A DNA stretch of 39,274 nt, from the IMG/VR virus record IMGVR_UViG_3300037511_000247, positions 1 through 39,274 of that record; one strand, 5' to 3'. Positions 395-39,274 of the stretch are shown in pieces. This DNA comes from a virus. The position numbers and the translations under genes are program-made. The notes below the pieces were generated by a model that was not told the DNA's origin, did no database searches, and was given only the letters and a program-made list of their open reading frames with translations. Each line of letters starts with the position of its first letter. Positions within the stretch are counted from its first letter, which is position 1.

Positions 395-1177
395 GTGGCA
401 ATGCACTCTTGGGCGCGCCGACTGCAGGAAGTTGTAGAAGCCAGGGGGCTCTCCATGAGGGAGTTGTCCCGGCTCTCCGGCGTCAACTATGACACCGTAA
501 ACAAGTGCTTACGCGGAGATGTCGAGAATCCACGGGGCGACACAATGGCCCGGCTCGCGCGCGCACTTGGCGTTTCGGAGGTCTGGCTCCGCCACGGGAT
601 TGGCGAACCGGCAGTAGTAATCCACAGCTCATCATTCCCCGAAAAGGCCGTTGCGGGAATGATCGATGCGAAACTATCGTCTAAGTCGTTGGACAGGCGA
701 AGAGAAGAATACGAAGCCGCGGACGATCTGATCCCAGTGATTGGTGAAGTTCAGGCCGGCGCCTGGCGGGAAGCGTTCGAACTCCCTGAATCGGAGTGGT
801 CCGAAATGCGTTTGCCCGCCGACCCAATGTACCCGGGCGTTCCCCGCTACGCCCTACGCAATGTCGGGGAATCCATGAACCGGGAGTGCGCCCATGGCGG
901 CCTATGGGTGTTCGTCAAGTTCGCGGATCTTACGGGCGTAGGCCCACAGCCGGGGGATTACGTCATCGTTCGGCGCGTCCGTCATGACGGCATGATCGAA
1001 GCCACCTGTAAGCGTCTTGAGATCCGGGCGGGTAAACCGTGGCTGTGCCCGGACTCAACAGACCCCTCATTCGAGGCCTTTCCTATTGAAGGTGACGGCG
1101 AGGTCGAAGAAATCGTGGTGTTCGGCTTGGTCACCGACATTGTGAATAAGCCCGGACGGCGCACCACTAGGGCCTAA
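395..1177 (+). CDS. cI: CI-like repressor: XRE-type HTH fused to a LexA/S24 autopeptidase domain
   Basis: 260 aa. HTH is LSMRELSRLSGVNYDTVNKCLRG. S24 hallmarks are IPVIGEVQAGAW (Ala-Gly cleavage context as in LexA VAAGEP), GESM (Ser nucleophile) and CKRL (Lys base). Start is GTG 395 or ATG 401. Confidence 0.9.
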   Translation: MAMHSWARRLQEVVEARGLSMRELSRLSGVNYDTVNKCLRGDVENPRGDTMARLARALGVSEVWLRHGIGEPAVVIHSSSFPEKAVAGMIDAKLSSKSLDRRREEYEAADDLIPVIGEVQAGAWREAFELPESEWSEMRLPADPMYPGVPRYALRNVGESMNRECAHGGLWVFVKFADLTGVGPQPGDYVIVRRVRHDGMIEATCKRLEIRAGKPWLCPDSTDPSFEAFPIEGDGEVEEIVVFGLVTDIVNKPGRRTTRA

Positions 1178-3427: not shown

Positions 3428-3762
3428 TGTCCGCACAAATGACGCTCCCCGTAATTCTCGCGAAGATGGCCGGGGCCCTGAGCAGGGTTCAGACTTCAAC
3501 CGAGCAACGCCGGATTATGGGCGCCATGCGAGCATACAACGACGCTGTGTGCGCGCTCGCTAGATACCAACCCAAGGATACCGACGAACTGCTGCAAAAA
3601 CTGTGGACCGGGTTCGCCATCCTCGATGCCGACTACCGGGTGGACCACGAGGAAGACTGTCCGCTGCACGCGCCGTCCGATCTGGCGGTCAGAAAACTGC
3701 GCAAGTCCATGGAGATGGACGTGCGGGCGGCGGTGGCGCTCAAGCTCAAAGCCGCTGCCTAG
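3427..3762 (+). CDS. Hypothetical protein, paralogue of 1959-2258
   Basis: 111 aa from ATG 3427, which shares one base with the upstream TGA. Shares the A-V-x-A-[IL]-A-R-[HY]-x5-D-E-[ML]-x2-K-L segment with the 1959-2258 product. Confidence 0.6.
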   Translation: MSAQMTLPVILAKMAGALSRVQTSTEQRRIMGAMRAYNDAVCALARYQPKDTDELLQKLWTGFAILDADYRVDHEEDCPLHAPSDLAVRKLRKSMEMDVRAAVALKLKAAA

Positions 3763-3771
3763 TCTCGCTCC

Positions 3772-3930
3772 ATGCCCCGCAAGTCCGCATCAGCGCTGGC
3801 GAAACAGCCCCAGGAGCCGCCCATGCCGGTGGAACTCCTGGAGCTGGCCCGCTTGCTTGCGGACATCAGCGTCACGCGCGAACATGGGCAGGCCGCCCCG
3901 CAGGAAGTCCCTCCGCCGCCGCGGCGCTGA
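3772..3930 (+). CDS. Possible 52-aa micro-ORF just upstream of int (positional RDF/excisionase candidate)
   Basis: MPRKSASALAKQPQEPPMPVELLELARLLADISVTREHGQAAPQEVPPPPRR. Third codon positions are strongly G/C-rich. An internal ATG at 3823 has an AGGAG 6 nt upstream. It is below the ORF-track length cutoff. Confidence 0.3.
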   Translation: MPRKSASALAKQPQEPPMPVELLELARLLADISVTREHGQAAPQEVPPPPRR

Positions 3931-3940
3931 GGACACCCAC

Positions 3941-5608
3941 ATGCGCGTATGTCTCTACGCCCGCTATTCCTCCGATCGGCAGAACCCAAGGTCTGTTGAC
4001 GATCAGGTCCGGGAGCTTCGCGACTTCTGCGACCGTCGCGGCTGGATCGTGGTGGACACTTTCTCTGATCCCGAGGTTTCCGGCGCAACCGTCATCCTGC
4101 GCCCCGGCGTCCAGGCGATGATGGCCGCCGCCGCTGAAGGCCGCTTTGACGTTGTCCTTGTCGAATCCCTGGACCGGTTCTCACGCGACCTGGGCGACAC
4201 GGCGAACCTGCGAAAGAGCCTGAAATTCCATCAGGTGGCCTTACACACGCTGAGCGGCGAACAGTCTCTTTTGCATATCGCCTTCGATGGCGCCCGCGCC
4301 GAACAGTTCCTGGAAGACCTCAAGGTGAAGGTGCGCCGCGGTCAGCGCGGCAACATCTCCCGAGGCCTCGCCGCAGGCGGGGTGAGTTACGGCTATGAAG
4401 TGGTCCGCGAGTTCGATGACAAGGGGCGGGTCCAGGGCGGACGGCGGCGCATCAACGAGGCGGAGGCCGCCATAGTGCGGGAGGTCTTAACCAGCTACGC
4501 CGCGGGCGTCTCACCCCTGGCAATCGCCGAGGATCTGAACCGGCGTGGGATTCCGGCGCCGCGAGGCGGCCGGTGGCGCGCCTCCACGATCAGCGGCAAC
4601 AAGGCCCGCCGGACCGGCATCCTGCAAAACGAACTCTATACCGGCCAACTCACCTATGGCCGCACCTGTAAGGCCAAGAACCCGGCCACGGGCAAGGAGC
4701 TGATCCGCAACCAGCCCGAAGCCGAATGGAAGCGACAATACGTCCCCGAGCTGCGGATTATTGATGACGCCACCTGGGCGGAAGTCCGGGCCATGATGAC
4801 CCGCACAGGGGCCCAGGCGCGCGCCGGCAAGCCGGTGAAGCGCGCGGCGCACCTGCTGTCCGGTTTGATCACCTGCACCTGTGGCGCGCCCTACGTCGCC
4901 CGGGACGCCAAGCGCCTATCCTGCCGGGGGTTCATGCACGACGGGACCTGCACGAACGCCCGAAGGGTCCGGCGCGACTGGATCGAAACTCGGGTTCTGG
5001 ACGAGATTGCCGCCGCCCTGGCACGCCCAGAAGCCGTGGCCGCGCATGCCCACAGGCTGCACCAGGCCAAGGCCGCCCAGGATGGCCAGCGCCGCGGTCA
5101 GCACCGGGCGGCGGTCAAGGAACTGGGTGAGGTCCGGACCAAGATCGGCCGCCTTGTTAACTCCATCGCGGATGGCGACAGCGCCCCGGCCTCTATCATG
5201 ACAATGATCACGAGCCTGGAGGCCCGGGAGAAGGTGCTCGCCGCCACCGTGGACAGCCTCAAGGACGAGGACGTGGTTCGGCTGGAGCCCAACGCCCATA
5301 GGCTCTACGCGGCGCGGCTAGCGAACCTGCGGGAGGCCTTGGAAAGCGGGACGCCGGCCCAACGGGCCAAGGCGCGCAGCCTGCTCCGCGGTCTCATCGA
5401 GCGGGTGGAAATCATCCCCGTGACCGGCGCCGATGGCCGGGAGACGTTCGAATGGAAACTGGTTGGAAAGCTCGCCGAATTCCTCAAGCTCGCCGCGAAC
5501 GGCGGAGCCGAGAAGACCCCAAATGTAGCGTGGGGGTCTGTGTTGGTGCGGGTAGAGGAAGTTGGTCAGATACCCCCACCCCTGCTGGAGCTACGATTTA
5601 CCGGATAG
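3941..5608 (+). CDS. int: Large serine recombinase (phage integrase)
   Basis: 555 aa from ATG 3941, with GAGGA 7 nt upstream. The N-terminal resolvase domain reads MRVCLYARYSSDRQ...VLVESLDRFSRD. A recombinase domain follows, then the Cys cluster CTCGAPYVARDAKRLSCRGFMHDGTC and a C-terminal coiled coil. The 660-aa ORF-track version is an upstream over-extension. Confidence 0.92.
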   Translation: MRVCLYARYSSDRQNPRSVDDQVRELRDFCDRRGWIVVDTFSDPEVSGATVILRPGVQAMMAAAAEGRFDVVLVESLDRFSRDLGDTANLRKSLKFHQVALHTLSGEQSLLHIAFDGARAEQFLEDLKVKVRRGQRGNISRGLAAGGVSYGYEVVREFDDKGRVQGGRRRINEAEAAIVREVLTSYAAGVSPLAIAEDLNRRGIPAPRGGRWRASTISGNKARRTGILQNELYTGQLTYGRTCKAKNPATGKELIRNQPEAEWKRQYVPELRIIDDATWAEVRAMMTRTGAQARAGKPVKRAAHLLSGLITCTCGAPYVARDAKRLSCRGFMHDGTCTNARRVRRDWIETRVLDEIAAALARPEAVAAHAHRLHQAKAAQDGQRRGQHRAAVKELGEVRTKIGRLVNSIADGDSAPASIMTMITSLEAREKVLAATVDSLKDEDVVRLEPNAHRLYAARLANLREALESGTPAQRAKARSLLRGLIERVEIIPVTGADGRETFEWKLVGKLAEFLKLAANGGAEKTPNVAWGSVLVRVEEVGQIPPPLLELRFTG

Positions 5609-6915: not shown

Positions 6916-7218
6916 CTATTTATCGGCATTTCCTGCCATCGACGGCTTCACGATCTGCGCCACGGCCTCCACCTTCGACCGACAGTCCGCGCCGGCCGCA
7001 GCCAGGTCGATGATGAACTGGCCGACGTCGCGCTGGGTGCCGGTATCCGGCGGCGCCGGCTGAGGGGCGCACGTCAGCAGGTCCCCGGGGATCGGCTGGC
7101 GCACTAGTTCCTTGCGCACCACGACCTGGGGAACAGGCGGCTCCGGCTTACTGGCGCAGGCCGCCAAGGGCAGCGCGAAGCACAGGAGCAACAGGGCCGT
7201 CATCGGTAGCCGGGGCAT
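6916..7218 (-). CDS. o-spanin (Rz1-like outer-membrane lipoprotein)
   Basis: 100 aa. Signal plus lipobox reads LLLLCFALPLAAC-ASKPEPP, followed by a Pro-rich mature part with further Cys. The start lies inside the 3' end of the i-spanin gene, giving an overlapped spanin arrangement. Confidence 0.7.
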   Translation of the reverse strand: MPRLPMTALLLLCFALPLAACASKPEPPVPQVVVRKELVRQPIPGDLLTCAPQPAPPDTGTQRDVGQFIIDLAAAGADCRSKVEAVAQIVKPSMAGNADK

Positions 7219-7540
7219 CGTGAATTCTCCGTTTCAGGGCGTCATAGTCGGATTGCAGGGCGGCCTGCGCCTGGCGCGCGGCGTCAGCCTTGGCCTCCGC
7301 TGCCGTGGTCATGTCCTGGTACAGCTGCAGGGTGGCGGCGTTGGCCTGGGCGGTTTCGTTCGCCGCGGTGAAGTTGGCCTTCCACTGATCGCGTGCGGTC
7401 TCGGTGGCGCTCAGGCGCGCATTGGCGGCGGACAGGCGTTCGTGTTCGACATAGACAGCGCCCGAAAGCACCAGCACCAGGACCGCGGCGCCGACGGCCG
7501 GCCAGATGTTGCCCATCAGCCAGGACAGGATGGTTTTCAT
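7148..7540 (-). CDS. i-spanin (Rz-like)
   Basis: 130 aa from ATG 7540. It has an N-terminal TM (MKTILSWLMGNIWPAVGAAVLVLVLSGAV) followed by an Ala/Gln-rich coiled coil. The 239-aa ORF-track version is over-extended. Confidence 0.75.
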   Translation of the reverse strand: MKTILSWLMGNIWPAVGAAVLVLVLSGAVYVEHERLSAANARLSATETARDQWKANFTAANETAQANAATLQLYQDMTTAAEAKADAARQAQAALQSDYDALKRRIHDAPATDDGPVAPVLRAALGGLRQ

Positions 7541-7601
7541 GGAAGCGCACCGCCGAGAGTGATGAGTAACAGGGTGGCAAGGACGATTAGGTGGGCCGCC
7601 G

Positions 7602-7898
7602 TCATGGGAAGCCTCCTTTGGAATCACCGCAGGCCACGCACAGCAGGTGCGGCCGGCATCCTTCCGGAATGACATATTCAAAATAAGAGTTGCCGCAGGC
7701 GCAGACCCATTTGGAATCACCCGGCGCGCCTCCGTAGAGGCCTTCACACACACCCTTGTCCAGGCCGCATGCCGGGCATTCGAATTGATCCTGCGGCGGC
7801 TTGTAGGTGGCGGTCCATCTGTGCCGACAACCGAGACACAGGAGCGGGCCGGTGGCCCATCGGTCACCCGGTCGCTTGAGGGTGACGATGTCGCCCAT
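7602..7898 (-). CDS. Cys-rich double zinc-ribbon protein
   Basis: 98 aa. CxxC-type pairs are CLGC, CPAC, CAC and CVAC. ATG 7898 shares one base with the upstream TGA. Confidence 0.6.
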   Translation of the reverse strand: MGDIVTLKRPGDRWATGPLLCLGCRHRWTATYKPPQDQFECPACGLDKGVCEGLYGGAPGDSKWVCACGNSYFEYVIPEGCRPHLLCVACGDSKGGFP

Positions 7899-8398
7899 CA
7901 CGCGGCCTTCACAAGAACGCGCGGAACACCATCTGCGCCAAGCTGCGGAGCCAGGAGAGAACCCAGGCTATTGTCCAAGGCGCCGCGGGCTTGCTCGATG
8001 GTGGCGAAGGGAAACGGCGTCAGCGTACCGCCGGACGCCGGGACGGCCACCTGCGCGAACCGCGAGGCAAGCAGCTGGTTAATGCGCGGGGCGTAGTCGG
8101 TGACCATGCGATATCCATAATGGTTGAGGATGTCGAGCATCGAGCCATTGAGGACCGTTCCGTCCGGGTGGTGGTATTCGTTCTGGTTGTCCTCGTCCTC
8201 GTACCAGATCGAGGTGTAGTTGGTGCCCGTCATGAAATCCCAGGTCCCGTTGGCTCCCTTTTCCACGAGAACCAGCGCCAGCGGGCGAATGATGCTGTCC
8301 GGCCATTCGTGCAGGTCCAGGTAGATTTCCGAATTGTCCGGCGTCGGTATCTTCAGGCCGTTGCCCGTGGGGCCGGCGTAGTTGCTCGGGAGTGTCAC
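7898..8398 (-). CDS. Hypothetical protein inside the lysis cassette
   Basis: 166 aa from GTG 8398, which forms a GTGA overlap with the endolysin stop. The ORF track gives an alternative start at 8422. No motif recognised. Confidence 0.55.
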   Translation of the reverse strand: MTLPSNYAGPTGNGLKIPTPDNSEIYLDLHEWPDSIIRPLALVLVEKGANGTWDFMTGTNYTSIWYEDEDNQNEYHHPDGTVLNGSMLDILNHYGYRMVTDYAPRINQLLASRFAQVAVPASGGTLTPFPFATIEQARGALDNSLGSLLAPQLGADGVPRVLVKAA

Positions 8399-8961
8399 TT
8401 GTTGCGCTCCATCAGCTGCCAATAGTCATTGATCCGGCGGACATAGGCCGGGGTCTCGGGAGTGTGCCGCGCCGTGCATACGGAGATAGCCGCCCAAAGG
8501 AGCGCATCGCCGCATTCGGCTTGGTCACGGATTATGTTTCCGGTGCCGCGGTTGTAGCTGGCGGCGGCGAGCCAGTGCTTATCCAGGGGCAGCCGTCCAC
8601 GAGCCCACTGTCCTCGAAGCTGGGCCATGTAGGCGGCTCCTGCGGGTATCGCGAACTTGGCGACGTGTGGGCTGGTAAAGGGATCGACGCCCAGTCGTTT
8701 GGCCAGATCGCGTCCCGTACCTGGCATGATTTGCGCGATGCCGAGGGCACCCACCGGCGATACCGCTCCAGGGTCGCATCTGGATTCGGCGTAAAGCTGG
8801 GCTGCCCACAGCAGGGGCACACGGAGGTCGGGCCACCATCTGCCGACAGCAGTTTCAACATCGCCGCGGTACTCATCGCAGCGCGACCCAAAGGACGATG
8901 CCCAGCAAGGCTGCGGGAGCGAGACAGAAAGCAACAACGCCAGGCCAAACATCACCTTCAT
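8395..8961 (-). CDS. Endolysin: secreted SLT-family lytic transglycosylase
   Basis: 188 aa from ATG 8961, with GGAGG 9 nt upstream. The N-terminal signal/SAR-like segment is MKVMFGLALLLSVSLPQPCWA. The catalytic region AESRCDPGAVSPVGALGIAQIMPGT plus AAASYNRG is typical of SLT domains. Confidence 0.85.
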   Translation of the reverse strand: MKVMFGLALLLSVSLPQPCWASSFGSRCDEYRGDVETAVGRWWPDLRVPLLWAAQLYAESRCDPGAVSPVGALGIAQIMPGTGRDLAKRLGVDPFTSPHVAKFAIPAGAAYMAQLRGQWARGRLPLDKHWLAAASYNRGTGNIIRDQAECGDALLWAAISVCTARHTPETPAYVRRINDYWQLMERNK

Positions 8962-9136
8962 CGGCGCGCGCCTCCACATTGTTGATGAAGCGTTCGAGGT
9001 CGAGGCCTAAGGCCTTCTCGCCAAGGGCCGCGATTAGCGCGCCGGCCGCGACGATCACGAGGAGAGCCAATACCAGGTAAAGGATGTTGAGGTGCGCGAC
9101 GCTGGAAGCGAGCGCAGCAGCGGTTCCTGCGTCCAT
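8873..9136 (-). CDS. Holin-like protein (2 TM helices)
   Basis: 87 aa. TM1 is LNILYLVLALLVIVAAGALIAAL and TM2 is VWPGVVAFCLAPAALLGIVLWVAL. The 3' end overlaps the endolysin start out of frame by about 89 nt. Confidence 0.6.
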   Translation of the reverse strand: MDAGTAAALASSVAHLNILYLVLALLVIVAAGALIAALGEKALGLDLERFINNVEARADEGDVWPGVVAFCLAPAALLGIVLWVALR

Positions 9137-9459
9137 TAGTCTTCCCTCCGGCGGGTGAGGCTATCGATCTTGGTTTCAATGCGGGCCAAGCGGTCCGCCA
9201 GCTCGCGCGTCAGATCCTGTGTCTTTGTCTGACCGTCGATGATCAGCCGCGAGTGCTCCGCAAGCTGCTCGGTGGCCTGATGCCGCCACGCGTTGAAGTC
9301 CGCGACGTACCAAACCCCTAAGGCCATCTGTCCGATCAACACCAGGATCAGGCTAATGTTGATTTCCTTTTTCAGGTGCCAGGGCTCCGGCTCACGGGGC
9401 CGGCGTTCGTCGCCGTCATACTTCCGCACGGCAGCCTCCCCCTGTGTTGGTGCGTTCAT
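9136..9459 (-). CDS. Single-TM membrane protein with C-terminal coiled coil (holin/antiholin or lysis regulator candidate)
   Basis: 107 aa. It has a charged N-terminus, TM INISLILVLIGQMALGVWYV, then a helical tail. Its TAA shares one base with the ATG of the holin-like gene (TAATG). Confidence 0.55.
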   Translation of the reverse strand: MNAPTQGEAAVRKYDGDERRPREPEPWHLKKEINISLILVLIGQMALGVWYVADFNAWRHQATEQLAEHSRLIIDGQTKTQDLTRELADRLARIETKIDSLTRRRED

Positions 9460-9698: not shown

Positions 9699-10508
9699 TC
9701 AGCCTGCAGGATAGGCGCCCTGCCTCCAGAGCACCTTCTTTTCCCCCGAAGTGAGATAGCGTTTCTCGACCTGCGGCATGAGAGTCGTAAGGCCGTAGTG
9801 GTCACCCTCTGGGCGCAGCTCAACGGCCATATAGTGGTTGGGGGGCTTGCCCTTTGCGGTCAGACCGCGCCCCGGCGTCACAATGAGACCAATTCGCCCG
9901 TTGTCCTGCTGGACCACCATGTTGTGGTTCCGCGCCACGTACTGAATGAAGTCGTCTTGTGAATCAAATCCGAGGTCTTTGATTTCTTTGATGCGCTTTT
10001 CGGGCGCGTGCTTAAACCCAAAGGTCTGGTCTCCCTCCGCGACGCGGATAGGGAGATTTTGCAAAACGTCGGGCGCTGCCTTCACGGCCTCGGGGTGCAT
10101 CATGCCCCAGTCGATGCCGCCTGACGGCGCGGGTCTGTAGGCCAGCTTCTTCGAAGCTTCACCGAATAGGCTCGGCGCTGCGCCTTCGCTCGCTGTGGCC
10201 GCCTCCGGCGCCGCCGTTTCACGCAGGAGGCTCGGCGCCGATTCCGTAACCGTCCTCATTGCCGCACCCGGCAGGCTGCCAGTCGCACCGAGCGCCAACA
10301 GACCGAGGTTGCGGCCGGCTGTCTGCACGTCCCCGCTGCGGTACGCGTCCAGCGTCTGGCGACCCATGCCGTAAAGGCCGCCGATCTGGTGTCCCAGGAG
10401 GTCAGCCAACGCCATGGTGCCGCTTAGCCAGGGGTTGATCTGGACTTCGCGCGCGGCGACGGGATCGGCGGCCAGGGGATCGCCGGGATGATCGAACAAA
10501 GAGGGCAT
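9699..10508 (-). CDS. Virion-module terminal protein with possible PBECR-type (Barnase/EndoU/ColicinE5-D/RelE-like) C-terminal domain
   Basis: 269 aa with GAGG 5 nt upstream of the ATG. The first ~120 aa are low-complexity and Ala/Gly-rich. The C-terminal block FGFKHAPEKRIKEI...FIQYVARNHNMVVQQDNGRIGLIV...HYMAVELRPEGDHYGLTTLM resembles the PBECR pattern. Confidence 0.6.
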   Translation of the reverse strand: MPSLFDHPGDPLAADPVAAREVQINPWLSGTMALADLLGHQIGGLYGMGRQTLDAYRSGDVQTAGRNLGLLALGATGSLPGAAMRTVTESAPSLLRETAAPEAATASEGAAPSLFGEASKKLAYRPAPSGGIDWGMMHPEAVKAAPDVLQNLPIRVAEGDQTFGFKHAPEKRIKEIKDLGFDSQDDFIQYVARNHNMVVQQDNGRIGLIVTPGRGLTAKGKPPNHYMAVELRPEGDHYGLTTLMPQVEKRYLTSGEKKVLWRQGAYPAG

Positions 10509-10601
10509 AGAGGCCTCAAAACGTTGAAAAACAGGCCTTTTCGGTGGGCTGACGAGAATCCCGCTTGCAGCTAAACTGCCTGTCTGCAGTTACTGGGGAA
10601 A

Positions 10602-10982
10602 ATGATGTCACAGCGGTATATCGGTCTCGCGGCGTTGACTGTCTCAATGGCAATCGGAATTGGTCACTCAATCGCCGCTGTGGACGAGTACGGCAGTTTG
10701 ACGGCGGAAATGCTCATGTCGTTTTGCGGCGCCGACGCCGATAGCGGTGTCCACAAATCTTGTGAAATGTATCTGAAGGGCGCGGCCGATGCCTTGAACA
10801 ACAGCAGCGCCAGCGCTCCCCATGCCTGCATGAGGTCCGCGACGCTAACTGAAGTGCGCTTGGCGTTCGTTCGCCTGGCGGCTCAACGGCTGGAAAATCA
10901 TCCCCAAGATATTGAAGCACCGGCCGCAAAACTTGTCGCCGCTGTCCTCCCGTCCGCGTTTGCATGCCCCTCTAAGAAATAG
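10602..10982 (+). CDS. Secreted Rap1a/Tai4-like immunity-family protein (moron)
   Basis: 126 aa. The signal peptide is MMSQRYIGLAALTVSMAIGIGHSIAA. Four Cys sit in the pattern FC-x11-CEMYLKGAADAL...HAC...LENHPQDIEAPAAKLVAAVLPSAFACP. It is on the opposite strand to all neighbours and is more AT-rich. Confidence 0.5.
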   Translation: MMSQRYIGLAALTVSMAIGIGHSIAAVDEYGSLTAEMLMSFCGADADSGVHKSCEMYLKGAADALNNSSASAPHACMRSATLTEVRLAFVRLAAQRLENHPQDIEAPAAKLVAAVLPSAFACPSKK

Positions 10983-10991
10983 AATTTCCGA

Positions 10992-13154
10992 CTACGGACC
11001 AAACAGGCTCCGCGTCGCCAGAGGGGTGGCGCCCAGCAATCCTTCTGTCGGCACCGCGCCGAAGGCGTTCCCTGAATTATAGAACCGGCGCATCTGATCG
11101 AGCGCGTAGGCGCGTCGCGCGGGATCGGTGGAGAAAAGGTACTGCGCCCCGAAGTCCCGCACCGCTTCCGGTTCAGCTTTGATCCTATTCCAGCCGCTGG
11201 AAAGCAGGTTGGCGGCCGCGCCCGTCAGCCCACCGTGCTTTGCCCCGTCCACAGCCTCGCCCATCATGTCGGCGGCGTCCTGCATGCCGGCCAGCCGCGG
11301 CGCTGACGGTGACCCGCCCAGAATGGTGTTCTTTGATGAGTGAAACTTGTCCTCGATAATCATGGACCGCTTGAAGTCATTGAACGCTTGGCGCGAGGGG
11401 TAAAACAGCTCGGCATTGCGGGCAGCGTTTTGGTTCTTGAAGAACTGATCGCTGACGTTTCCGCCGCGGTTCGTCTTGCTCAGCAGGAACTTGGCTTGAT
11501 CGGCGAAGCCGATGCGCGCGAAATCCCGCTCGTTCGGCGTCATACCTTCGAGAAGTTCAGCGCTCAGCCTTGCGTCCCCCTTCGCCGCCTGCTGCCCAAG
11601 TTCGACCATGCGCATCGCCTGGGTGGGGCCCGACCAGGTACGCAGCGCGTCCTGATATTCTGGGAATTGCAGCTGGAGCTCCTGAAGGATCGAGCTGCGC
11701 ATGTCGTTGATAGAGCGGCCGTACTTGGTGAGCTGGCCCGTGGTCGGATTGACGATATTTTCCCCGCCGCTGAACAGGATGTCGTCCAGACCTTCTTTGG
11801 CTGCATGCCACGCCTGGAAGGTGGGCTTGCCGTTGATGTTGAATATCGCCGGGTCCATCTGGCGACCTTCAGCGTTTTCGCTGTTGCGGAAGGTGTTTTG
11901 CCCGATATTCATGCCGCGGCGCACTTCGGGGTTCTCCGCGAGAACGTCCAGCACAGGGCTGTCTGCGGCGCGAGGCGTAGCAAACATCTGGCGCCAGATC
12001 GGACTGGAAGAACGGCTGCGCAGATCCACAAGCCCGTCGATGGTCGCTCGGGCCTGGTCGCTGGTAAGGTTGTGGTTGATGGCGTTTTCAGCGCGCGCCA
12101 CAGCGCCGCCTCGGGTGCCGAAGCGGCTTCCCTGCTGTGCGCCGAAGCCGGCCTGGGCCGCCTGACGGGCGCGGCCGGGGAACTGAGCGATGTCGCGGGC
12201 GAAATCGGTGATTTGGCCGCCGACGTTGGCCAGCATGCCGGCAGGCCCCAGCTTGTCGGTTTTCGCCGCGAGCATATCCGGGGTGAGGTTGGCGCGGTCA
12301 GCGGCTTTCGACAGCGATGCAAAAAACGCCTCCTCGGGGTTCAAGCGCTTCAGAATCGGGGCCGCGAGAGACTTAAGGGCAGCGGGTCCGCCCTCGACCA
12401 GCGCTGGACCGCCGACGCTGAACGCGGCGCCCTTAAAGAAATCGGCCCCGGCGCGCTTAATGGCGTCGTTCAAGGGGTTGGGAAGGCCGCCGCCCTCTGG
12501 GGGCGCAACCATGCCGAGGGCCGCCAGCCCACCAGCACCAGCAGCGCTTTTCTTGGCCGCGTCGGGATCGTCGTTCGTCGCACCGTAGAGAGAATTCAGC
12601 ACGCCGCCCTGGAAGCCATACCGGCCATAGCGCGACAAGAGCGCTGGCAGACCCTCAGCCATTTCCGGAATCACCTTGGCCGCACCAAGGGCGGCCACCT
12701 TGTTCACCGGACTCGCGACCAGACCAAGGGGGCCGATAGAGGACTTGACCGCTTCCGGCACCGCATCCGATTTCGCCTGTTCGTCGGCAAGGGCTTTTTC
12801 GTATGGAACGTTATCAAAGAGGCTGCGAACCTTCGCCTCCAGCTTGTTCGCCTGGTGAAAACTAGCGAGGTCCGCGAACTCGCGCCCGATGTCCCCTATG
12901 CGCTTGGGGATGTCCTTGAAGGCAATGCCGTTGGCGTTGTTCGGAGCCGGTACCGATAGGTGCGAGCCGTCAGGACGCAGCTTGTACCAGCCGGTGTTGT
13001 CGGTCGAATGGATCGGCTGTTGCTGGGCATAGGGCAACCACGGAGCCTTTGAGGGCGCGGGCTCCTCAGCGTCCAGCGTAAAGCCCGGAGGCAAGCCACC
13101 GCCGGCGGGCGGGGACGGCGCATCCAGCTCGAAGCCTTCCGGTAGGTCACTCAT
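10992..13154 (-). CDS. Large internal virion / DNA-ejection protein candidate
   Basis: 720 aa from ATG 13154, which forms an ATGA overlap with the upstream stop. The N-terminus has a duplicated LP(E/P)GF(E/T)LDA motif. The protein is Ala/Gly-rich, and the call rests on its position after the tail genes. Confidence 0.6.
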   Translation of the reverse strand: MSDLPEGFELDAPSPPAGGGLPPGFTLDAEEPAPSKAPWLPYAQQQPIHSTDNTGWYKLRPDGSHLSVPAPNNANGIAFKDIPKRIGDIGREFADLASFHQANKLEAKVRSLFDNVPYEKALADEQAKSDAVPEAVKSSIGPLGLVASPVNKVAALGAAKVIPEMAEGLPALLSRYGRYGFQGGVLNSLYGATNDDPDAAKKSAAGAGGLAALGMVAPPEGGGLPNPLNDAIKRAGADFFKGAAFSVGGPALVEGGPAALKSLAAPILKRLNPEEAFFASLSKAADRANLTPDMLAAKTDKLGPAGMLANVGGQITDFARDIAQFPGRARQAAQAGFGAQQGSRFGTRGGAVARAENAINHNLTSDQARATIDGLVDLRSRSSSPIWRQMFATPRAADSPVLDVLAENPEVRRGMNIGQNTFRNSENAEGRQMDPAIFNINGKPTFQAWHAAKEGLDDILFSGGENIVNPTTGQLTKYGRSINDMRSSILQELQLQFPEYQDALRTWSGPTQAMRMVELGQQAAKGDARLSAELLEGMTPNERDFARIGFADQAKFLLSKTNRGGNVSDQFFKNQNAARNAELFYPSRQAFNDFKRSMIIEDKFHSSKNTILGGSPSAPRLAGMQDAADMMGEAVDGAKHGGLTGAAANLLSSGWNRIKAEPEAVRDFGAQYLFSTDPARRAYALDQMRRFYNSGNAFGAVPTEGLLGATPLATRSLFGP

Positions 13155-18827: not shown

Positions 18828-19820
18828 GTGGTCTTCTTCGTGCTTGAGCAGATTTATGAGGAGCTGGGACGCTCAAAAATTGGCGGTGCATTATCGGAGC
18901 ATCCCGGCGACAGGCTTTTTTATGAAGCAGTCACCAGATCGTTGATTAAAGCGCCCGCGCGCGGCTTTAAGGCCGATCTGAAAAGACTCCCTCACATCTT
19001 CTTCCTTTCAGAGGAAGTGAAGGACATAGGCATCAAGCCCAGACCAGCGTGGCTCCAGTTAAACGACGGCTGGGGCGCCGCAGAACCAAAGGGCGGCGAA
19101 CAAGCGCTCTATTGGAACGGCACAGAGTTAGGGGCTCGCCCACACCCGGGCCCGGAGCGGGCTTGGTCTGAGGAATATGAGGATTTCGCAAATCGCGTTG
19201 TTTCCGTCGCCGCGCCGATGGCGAGGTCACCGGTCATCGTTGAGATCGGTGCCGGCACTGGAGCGGTCACCTTTCACTTGGCCGATATCGCTCGCTCGCG
19301 TGGTTTGCGCGAAATGCGGTTCGTCAATATCGAGCGTGATGCCGCAGCTCTCGCCTTCAGTCGCATTTTCTCTGACCGATATAAACTACCGATCAACCAC
19401 ATCCTGATGGATGTGGGCGCGTCCTTAGATCGGCAAAGCGACTTGGACGAGCTCGCGTCCCGCGTCCATGCAGAGGAGCGCCCCGTCATCGTAATCACAC
19501 ACGGCGCGCTCCATCCGTTCTACACCGATGAGCAGTACGCCAAGCTATTCCCCTATTTAGTTCGCGGTCTAAACGCTGTTGCTGGCGTACATCTTGAGCG
19601 GAACGGCTTCAGAACAGCGACGTTCGAGAACCTTAGAGGCAGGTTTCGTGAAAATACCTATGAGGTGCATCAGCAGTTCACCGAGTGCGCCTCAGATCCG
19701 TTCGAATACCTCGCCAACAACTCCGCCAATCTGGGCATCTCAATTAGAAGCCGGCAGGAGCTTTTTAGGCACTTCCCGCCAAGACACGCCCCGTCGTTTA
19801 TGGCCTGGTCCCGTCCCTGA
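18828..19820 (+). CDS. Class I SAM-dependent methyltransferase (non-DNA type), moron
   Basis: 330 aa. Motif I is VIVEIGAGTGAVTFHL and the acidic post-I residue lies in FVNIERD. I see no DPPY/NPPY or PCQ/ENV DNA-methylase motifs. Start is GTG 18828 or GTG 18840, with AGGTGG at 18826-18831. It is on the opposite strand to its neighbours. Confidence 0.65.
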   Translation: MVFFVLEQIYEELGRSKIGGALSEHPGDRLFYEAVTRSLIKAPARGFKADLKRLPHIFFLSEEVKDIGIKPRPAWLQLNDGWGAAEPKGGEQALYWNGTELGARPHPGPERAWSEEYEDFANRVVSVAAPMARSPVIVEIGAGTGAVTFHLADIARSRGLREMRFVNIERDAAALAFSRIFSDRYKLPINHILMDVGASLDRQSDLDELASRVHAEERPVIVITHGALHPFYTDEQYAKLFPYLVRGLNAVAGVHLERNGFRTATFENLRGRFRENTYEVHQQFTECASDPFEYLANNSANLGISIRSRQELFRHFPPRHAPSFMAWSRP

Positions 19821-39147: not shown

Positions 39148-39274
39148 CACCAAAGCCCGGCCGCGGCGTAAACCCAGGATCGCGGCGCGCGGACGACGCC
39201 ACACGGCTCAGATCTACTGGTTCGAAATGGAACGCCTGAAGCGCTTGGGGTTGCGGTGAAGTCATCAAGCGGCC
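39148..39274. repeat. Right copy of the 127-bp terminal direct repeat
   Basis: Identical to bases 1-127. It includes the last 10 nt of the cro-like gene. Confidence 0.9.

Follow-up and report, generated by a model that had tools for sequence, protein, structure and literature searches.

Rap1a of Serratia marcescens and Tai4 of Agrobacterium tumefaciens (AtTai4) are five-helix immunity proteins that dimerise via helix alpha2 and depend on a disulfide, formed by Cys78-Cys122 in Rap1a and by Cys80-Cys124 in AtTai4 (PMC3852654; PMC6277958). Rap1a is made with a 26-residue signal that is cleaved off (PMC3852654). Immunity proteins against Tae4-family amidases of type VI secretion systems (T6SS) have two unrelated folds, that of Rap1a/Tai4a and that of EcTai4, STTai4 and Rap2a (PMC3852654; PMC6277958). 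Phage-borne T6SS effector/immunity clusters, as well as orphan immunity genes on mobile DNA or islands, have been documented (PMC11481896, PMC13366799, PMC7400221, bioRxiv 10.64898/2026.08.01.741415). Here we analysed a stretch of viral DNA of 39,274 nucleotides (nt), IMG/VR record IMGVR_UViG_3300037511_000247, which is called the window below. It carries, at 10602..10982 on the plus strand, a gene for a protein of 126 amino acids (aa) that resembles Rap1a and lies among virion genes of a phage. A first-pass annotation had read this gene as an opposite-strand moron encoding a Rap1a/Tai4-like periplasmic immunity protein without a cognate effector.

Family and fold of the 126-aa protein

The gene was seen in the list of open reading frames (ORFs), in the Pfam results and in the gene calls. 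It was also called independently in two public assemblies (Logan and JGI), as 125 or 126 aa; the shorter length applies if the start is the ATG at 10605. The stop codon TAG is at 10980-10982. Pfam family Rap1a (PF18602) matched the product with E = 1.8e-9 and 38.4 bits, compared with a gathering score of 27.7, and the match covered profile positions 2-90 of 90. No other Pfam family matched it at E <= 1, and no PHROG, NCBIfam or PADLOC family matched it. A word-indexed protein search with the single sequence returned only the protein itself. An exhaustive phmmer search of 1.84 billion cluster representatives yielded 13 proteins, 10 of which were small signal-peptide proteins of 112-155 aa. All eight of the proteins that were scanned with Pfam passed the Rap1a threshold. 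The best non-self matches, P0002 and P0004, were long repeat proteins that aligned at the signal-peptide region, and we discarded them as spurious. In the alignment of the small relatives, where identity was about 30%, the four cysteines, Y57, G60, A108 and F120 were invariant.

When the protein was compared with solved structures, phmmer with the single sequence found nothing in the PDB, and pairwise BLASTP against Rap1a gave no alignment. A profile built from the nearest relatives reached the solved Rap1a (3ZFI, 4BI8) with E = 6e-7, and AtTai4 marginally, with E of ~0.1. We built an AlphaFold model from a multiple sequence alignment (MSA) of 25 sequences; the single-sequence model was poor, with a predicted local distance difference test score (pLDDT) of 57, and was not used. 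The MSA-based model was all-helical, with a mean pLDDT of 78, values of ~85-95 over residues 31-120 and values below 50 for residues 1-26. The six best matches of this model in a Foldseek search of the PDB were all Rap1a or AtTai4 chains (6IJF, 4BI8, 3ZFI, 6IJE), with AtTai4 at the top. Their probabilities were 0.97-1.0 and their target template-modelling scores 0.63-0.70, and the next matches were at <= 0.3. No EcTai4, STTai4 or Rap2 chain was among the matches of either the PDB profile search or Foldseek.

Profile searches and the predicted structure both place the 126-aa protein in the Rap1a (Tai4a)-fold family. The first-pass annotation had suggested a hidden Markov model search and a structure prediction as checks on its family assignment. 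Both came out in its favour, since the Pfam match lies above the gathering score over the full profile, the family profile reaches the solved Rap1a, and the six best PDB fold matches are Rap1a and AtTai4 chains only. The wider label that it used, Rap1a/Tai4, held for the Rap1a (Tai4a) fold including Agrobacterium Tai4, and failed for the fold of Enterobacter and Salmonella Tai4 and Rap2a.

The product begins with a predicted Sec signal peptide of about residues 1-26 (10602..10679, plus strand). By inspection and hydropathy, its n-region is basic (R5), residues 6-20 form a hydrophobic core, and the c-region is H-S-I-A-A, with cleavage near SIA/A-VDE. The homologs have A-x-A at the aligned cleavage position and the same n/h/c layout. 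As there is no lipobox, a soluble protein of the periplasm is expected. Both this signal peptide and the arrangement of four cysteines with their motifs had been noticed before; the former is borne out by the n/h/c layout, and the latter was exact.

The mature part is predicted to be a five-helix domain of ~100 aa (10680..10979, plus strand). It contains C42, C54, C76 and C122, together with the alpha2 motif Y57-x-x-G60-x-x-D63-A64. C76 and C122 were invariant in the family alignments and aligned with Cys78 and Cys122 of Rap1a, the placement of Cys78 being taken from HMMER and full MAFFT alignments. As predicted from the alignment, the fold-critical disulfide is conserved as C76-C122. C42 and C54, judged from the aligned relatives, mark a four-cysteine (4-Cys) subfamily. 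They probably form a second disulfide, which would staple alpha1 to alpha2.

The likeness to Rap1a (SMA2260; PF18602; 3ZFI, 4BI8) covers size, a signal of about 26 residues and an all-alpha five-helix domain, and it was found at both the profile and the fold level. The two proteins also have in common the disulfide, predicted for the phage protein, that ties the alpha2-alpha3 loop to an F-x-C motif at the C-terminus, and the Y-x-x-G-x-x-D-A motif in alpha2, the helix through which Rap1a dimerises. Among the residues of the Rap1a dimer interface, Y64, D70, A71, I63 and L41 correspond to Y57, D63, A64, M56 and L33 of the phage protein, whereas L66 is K59 and the other interface residues differ. 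Unlike in Rap1a, C42 and C54 take the places of Tyr50, which contacts the effector Ssp1, and Ala61. Most of the Ssp1-contact residues differ, and no pairwise BLAST similarity exists. Rap1a also sits beside ssp1 in a T6SS cluster, whereas the phage gene stands alone.

The five-helix dimer architecture and an equivalent disulfide, both predicted for the phage protein, are found in AtTai4 as well (6IJE, 6IJF; PMC6277958), although the profile similarity to it was only marginal and AtTai4 is paired with its effector AtTae4, whereas the phage gene is an orphan. Tai4 proper (EcTai4, STTai4, Rap2a and Rap1b/2b) would resemble the phage protein in its presumed job, inhibition of Tae4-family amidases by a dimeric, helical protein of the periplasm, but it is a separate fold and sequence family (PMC3852654).

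A probable moron in a temperate podophage

Between ~6916 and 18766 (11.8 kb), the Rap1a-like ORF was the only gene called on the plus strand, and the next plus-strand gene is at 18828..19820. The first-pass annotation had counted more than 8 kb of minus-strand genes around it; the stretch proved to extend over ~11.8 kb. GC content of the ORF was 57.2%, compared with 62.4% for the window, which puts it at the 5th percentile among 381-nt windows. GC content at third codon positions (GC3) was 0.638, compared with 0.71-0.84 in flanking and structural genes. The higher AT content that had been reported for the gene is real, and it is modest.

Upstream of the gene is an intergenic region of 93 bp (10509..10601, plus strand; 52% GC), and downstream a spacer of 9 nt (10983..10991) separates its stop from the convergent stop of a gene for a 720-aa virion protein. 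Both lengths had been given correctly at first reading. The upstream region holds a Shine-Dalgarno-like GGGGA at 10595-10599, better spaced to the second ATG (10605) than to the first. It also holds a weak palindromic hairpin at 10509-10540 (AGGCCT...AGGCCTTTT), the stability of which was not above that of shuffled sequence (z = -0.3). About 30 nt past the stop, within the 3' end of the 720-aa gene, there is a GC hairpin with an 8-bp stem (11012-11032; z = -1.9 compared with shuffles). An Rfam search of the region of the gene gave no match.

We looked for related phages with the same pair of flanking genes. The sole relative of the flanking genes found in any collection was a Logan contig, L015. 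It encodes a distant homolog (736 aa) of the 720-aa protein and, after it, a homolog with 47% identity to the 269-aa protein that is encoded on the other side of the Rap1a-like gene. The junction of L015 measures only 200 bp. It is without a Rap1a gene and has a different opposite-strand ORF. Searches with the 720-aa and 269-aa proteins found no further related phage in IMG/VR, GTDB genomes or JGI metagenomes, including a search with a degenerate DNA pattern. From this one comparator, the sequence comparison suggests that the junction between the 720-aa and 269-aa genes is a variable cargo slot. The gene is probably a moron, as first proposed: it lies on the opposite strand, it deviates in composition with its low GC3, and in one related phage, with the same flanks, it is not present at this site.

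The opposite-strand ORF of L015 (3058-3348, minus strand) would encode 96 aa with two hydrophobic transmembrane (TM)-like segments and no family match; it shares ~100 nt with the end of the 736-aa gene.

The classical morons of lysogenic conversion are bor and lom of phage lambda. Like them, the Rap1a-like gene is a small gene for a predicted exported protein, set apart by orientation and composition in the late region of a temperate phage. Unlike them, it encodes a product of another family, and its promoter and terminator were not found in our scans.

No Tae4, NlpC/P60, CHAP or other amidase domain was detected in any called gene of the circular phage genome. Our scans and precomputed Pfam calls, which between them took in every called gene, found an SLT transglycosylase as the only muralytic domain. 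The first-pass annotation had also stated that no cognate amidase is present and that the endolysin is a transglycosylase, and these results agree with it. Since no amidase-type effector is detectable in the phage, the gene is an orphan as far as the genome sequence can tell. A cryptic effector may still be present among the many unannotated phage proteins. Adjacency to an effector is typical of the Rap1a family, but it is not needed for membership.

The divergent neighbour (9699..10508, minus strand) encodes the 269-aa protein, which contains no cysteine, as had been remarked earlier. It had no match in Pfam, PHROGs, NCBIfam, PADLOC or the PDB, and its one homolog, P0037, is 47% identical. 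Conservation with P0037 is very strong over a C-terminal domain of ~140 aa (NHNMVVxQDNGRIGL, YMAVELRPxGDHYG), and judged by sequence this region is an unclassified phage domain. The convergent neighbour (10992..13154, minus strand) encodes the 720-aa protein of the virion module, which matched phrog_5880 (E = 4e-30) and has distant homologs in Rhizobium phage RHph_I1_23 and in L015. In RHph_I1_23, the gene after the 720-aa homolog encodes a virion-module cell-wall hydrolase (Hydrolase_2). We considered the 269-aa protein as a cognate toxin or cell-wall hydrolase and rejected it, as it has no cysteine and no domain match and is unrelated to that Hydrolase_2 protein.

The carrier is the complete genome of a temperate podophage and not an excised piece of chromosome. 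Bases 1-127 of the window are repeated exactly at 39148-39274, and the assembly is therefore circular, with a length of ~39,147 bp. A Logan assembly of SRR12692973 contains the same element, as does JGI metagenome 3300045391. The virion genes of the phage encode an SU10-type portal, major capsid protein and adaptor, and a terminase gene is also present. Pfam identified a CI/LexA-type repressor with a helix-turn-helix (HTH) domain and an S24 peptidase domain (395..1177, plus strand) and a large serine recombinase (3626-5608); the phage is therefore temperate. It had earlier been spoken of as a prophage. The temperate part of this description stands; the assembly is a circle with a 127-nt terminal overlap, and integration would be presumed. 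The phage is remote from all deposited phages (portal identity <= 39%), and no nucleotide match emerged when 12 kb of the window was compared by megablast with 50,697 deposited phages.

The lysis cassette (6916-9459, minus strand) comprises an Rz-like gene of 107 aa (9136-9459), a gene at 8873-9136 for an 87-aa product that has two hydrophobic, TM-like segments, the SLT transglycosylase gene and a gene for an o-spanin-like protein with a lipobox (LAAC) and a weak LysC match (6916-7218). In its long ORF form (8395-8979), the transglycosylase begins with a signal-like stretch, whereas the gene callers chose a later start that leaves 119 aa.

A second opposite-strand insert was seen in the tail module. 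The ORF at 18828-19820 (plus strand; 326-330 aa) had weak matches to S-adenosylmethionine-dependent methyltransferase-like families (RrnaAD, OlsG, PADLOC mad2). Its GC content of 56.5% and GC3 of 0.64 are near those of the Rap1a-like gene, so that this ORF, too, may be a moron.

Relatives and other phage-borne genes of the family

Rap1a-family genes without an effector are a recurrent phage cargo that can be seen in the databases. The closest small relative of the 126-aa protein, P0003 (33% identity), has its gene 5 nt downstream of that for a CI-type repressor with HTH and S24 domains (contig L020, 1255-2903). The same arrangement is present on two contigs, the other being a 7.8-kb contig of ENA ERZ1426819. 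The locus is divergent from small early genes, with MT-A70 and GapR nearby, and P0003 is followed by an 86-aa lipoprotein-like ORF (phrog_29674). From its gene order, we take this locus to be the repressor operon of another temperate phage, with a layout like that of rexAB. As P0003 comes directly after the CI-type repressor, its position leads us to expect expression in lysogens. Another relative, P0016, comes after a Cro-like HTH gene.

Further cases came from other searches. With a typical member of the family as query, tblastn detected a Rap1a-family gene in phage DSL-LC04 (WJZ48091.1; PF18602, 63.8 bits), which lies within a cluster of small early genes (contig L021, 5992-6318; OR003939.1, 25102-25428). 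This phage has no annotated integrase and has an M15A endolysin. The GenBank label of the gene, 'type VI amidase (Tai4)', is a mislabel, as the product is of the Rap1a-family immunity type, and the paper describing DSL-LC04 does not mention the gene. Foldseek against BFVD gave three more viral proteins with the fold at a probability of 1.0 (A0A6J7W580, A0A6J5LJN0 and A0A516LWR8), the first two bearing the automatic name 'Rap1a immunity protein domain-containing protein [uncultured Caudovirales phage]'. Searching the 50,697 deposited phages by tblastn with the 126-aa protein, P0003 and P0006 returned nothing.

The genes of DSL-LC04, A0A6J7W580, A0A6J5LJN0 and P0003 resemble the gene of the window in family or fold, in being encoded by phages and in lacking an effector; none of the phage genes that we examined adjoins one. 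They differ in setting: P0003 lies in a repressor operon and the DSL-LC04 gene in an early gene cluster, whereas the gene described here lies on the opposite strand at a junction of the virion module. The DSL-LC04 protein is also of a 2-Cys type, whereas the protein of the window and P0003 are of the 4-Cys type. We found no discussion of recurrent phage Rap1a-family genes in the literature searched.

Proposed role and competing explanations

The reading that we prefer begins with horizontal acquisition. The Rap1a-like moron would be cargo gained where the virion module meets the 269-aa and lysis genes of an SU10-like temperate podophage. Its product would be exported by the Sec pathway and, once oxidised, would be a disulfide-stabilised, five-helix periplasmic protein. 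By analogy with Serratia Rap1a and Agrobacterium Tai4, it would form a homodimer through alpha2. Each dimer would capture two copies of a Tae4-family (Ssp1-like) peptidoglycan DL-endopeptidase that enters the cell, and would obstruct their Cys-His active sites sterically. As the phage encodes no such enzyme, the gene would act as an orphan immunity gene, shielding the lysogen or infected cell, and so the phage's own investment, from T6SS attack by neighbours. Following this analogy, we lean towards the view that the protein neutralises Tae4-family endopeptidases and protects the lysogen or infected cell from T6SS.

Mobile immunity that benefits the recipient cell has parallels in orphan T6SS immunity genes, in interbacterial defence acquired with mobile elements and in the T6SS effector-immunity clusters of Ralstonia phiRSY1-like prophages and Burkholderia phage AB4; temperate phages are thus known to carry T6SS-related cargo (PMC11481896, PMC13366799, PMC7400221). 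Unlike the phage effector-immunity clusters, the locus described here would provide a single immunity gene, without effector, VgrG or PAAR, in the virion module of a podophage. We found no description of a lone immunity gene in such a place in the literature searched.

Several observations weigh against a role in T6SS immunity. Similarity to Rap1a is, on the sequences compared, visible only at the profile level, and the Foldseek E-values were weak (0.06-0.46). Among the 12 Rap1a residues that contact Ssp1, at best 2-3 are conserved. Effector specificity therefore cannot be inferred and the cognate effector cannot be named, although poor conservation of these residues is expected for polymorphic immunity proteins. 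We inspected nine genomic contexts of the 4-Cys subfamily and found no Tae4 effector or T6SS gene nearby, so that the link of this subfamily to T6SS is drawn from homology only. A scan upstream of the gene for the sigma-70 consensus, which may not be that of the host, gave 0 sites. No canonical terminator was found, the hairpin at 11012-11032 being without a T-run. Export, dimerisation, the class of the target enzyme, expression in lysogens and a fitness benefit are what we infer.

Some of these observations fit a different explanation, namely that the Rap1a-fold protein has a role unrelated to the neutralisation of toxins or lysins, or that the gene is a silent hitch-hiker. No promoter or terminator was evident in the scans, and the residues that contact the effector are not conserved. 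Members of the 4-Cys subfamily are always orphans and often found in ordinary chromosomal settings; several stand alone on a chromosome, as in metagenome-assembled genomes of Burkholderiales, where urease genes lie next to them. To our knowledge, only two members of the Rap1a family have ever been characterised. Nevertheless, the ORF is intact, and it has kept the four cysteines, the signal peptide and the dimer-helix motif at ~30% identity to its relatives, which indicates that purifying selection has acted on a protein that folds and is exported. That several unrelated phages acquired such genes independently speaks for a selectable benefit, and orphan immunity genes are typical of T6SS immunity biology. 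We therefore regard an unrelated or silent role as unlikely, although it is the strongest of the competitors.

Somewhat less probable again is superinfection exclusion, in which a periplasmic Rap1a-fold protein would inhibit the virion peptidoglycan hydrolase of other phages and block DNA entry at the cell wall. Candidate targets would be tail lysins of the papain-fold CHAP or NlpC/P60 type, which have the Tae4 fold. The precedent is Spackle of phage T4 (gp61.3), a phage-encoded small helical periplasmic protein that blocks the gp5 lysozyme (PMC7677548). The analogy is functional: like Spackle, the 126-aa protein would be made by a phage, exported through Sec and, as a small helical protein, inhibit a peptidoglycan hydrolase in the periplasm (PMC7677548). 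Effector-less Rap1a genes recur in phages, and P0003 lies in a repressor operon, where exclusion genes such as lambda rexAB sit. The DSL-LC04 member lies among early genes in a phage without an annotated integrase, and Spackle is likewise an early gene. In addition, no 4-Cys relative adjoins T6SS genes. However, the fold and sequence of Spackle are unrelated, it was not among the PDB fold matches, and its target is a phage lysozyme, not a T6SS amidase. Inhibition of a phage enzyme is not known for any member of the Rap1a family, and PADLOC gave no defence model match. The carrier phages use SLT (window) or M15 (DSL-LC04, L015) enzymes and not Tae4- or CHAP-like ones, which leaves an exclusion of self-type phages without a visible target.

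The recurrence could also be given a broader meaning. Effector-less Rap1a-fold genes might form an undescribed class of recurrent phage cargo, made up not simply of T6SS immunity taken over from bacteria but of phage-adapted inhibitors of papain-fold muralytic enzymes that serve superinfection exclusion or armour the wall against T6SS amidases and foreign lysins alike. We regard this as speculative and as improbable as the Spackle-like role.

A self-directed function would make the protein an inhibitor or timer of the phage's own SLT endolysin, of the 269-aa protein or of an ejected virion protein, as self-immunity or as a lysis regulator. The gene does adjoin the 269-aa gene, with the lysis cassette ~1.5 kb away, immunity genes normally lie next to their toxin, and the hydrolase of RHph_I1_23 shows that muralytic proteins occur at this position. 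We consider such a function very improbable, as the gene is transcribed against the late operon and therefore would not be co-expressed with late genes, the 269-aa protein has no cysteine, signal peptide or detectable hydrolase domain and shows no relation to the Rhizobium hydrolase, L015 has retained a homolog of the 269-aa protein without a Rap1a gene, other phage Rap1a genes are found in quite different neighbourhoods, the lysins of the carrier phages are not of the Tae4 type, and the known targets of Rap1a are Cys-His amidases, not transglycosylases.

With T6SS immunity as the favoured role, the finding extends known ideas, namely orphan immunity genes, mobile interbacterial defence and phage-borne T6SS cargo. 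The protein is a divergent member of a known family, and its location is uncommon, not unique. If the proposed role is true, lysogeny would alter the outcome of contact-dependent bacterial warfare, as the host would gain resistance to a class of T6SS cell-wall toxins. This would be lysogenic conversion directed at bacterial rivals, and not at other phages or eukaryotic hosts. The presence of effector-less Rap1a genes in several unrelated phages, one of them probably co-transcribed with a CI-type repressor, hints at a repeated, selectable phage strategy. It seems that the recurrent and unstudied presence of the Rap1a family in phages is the part most worth attention.

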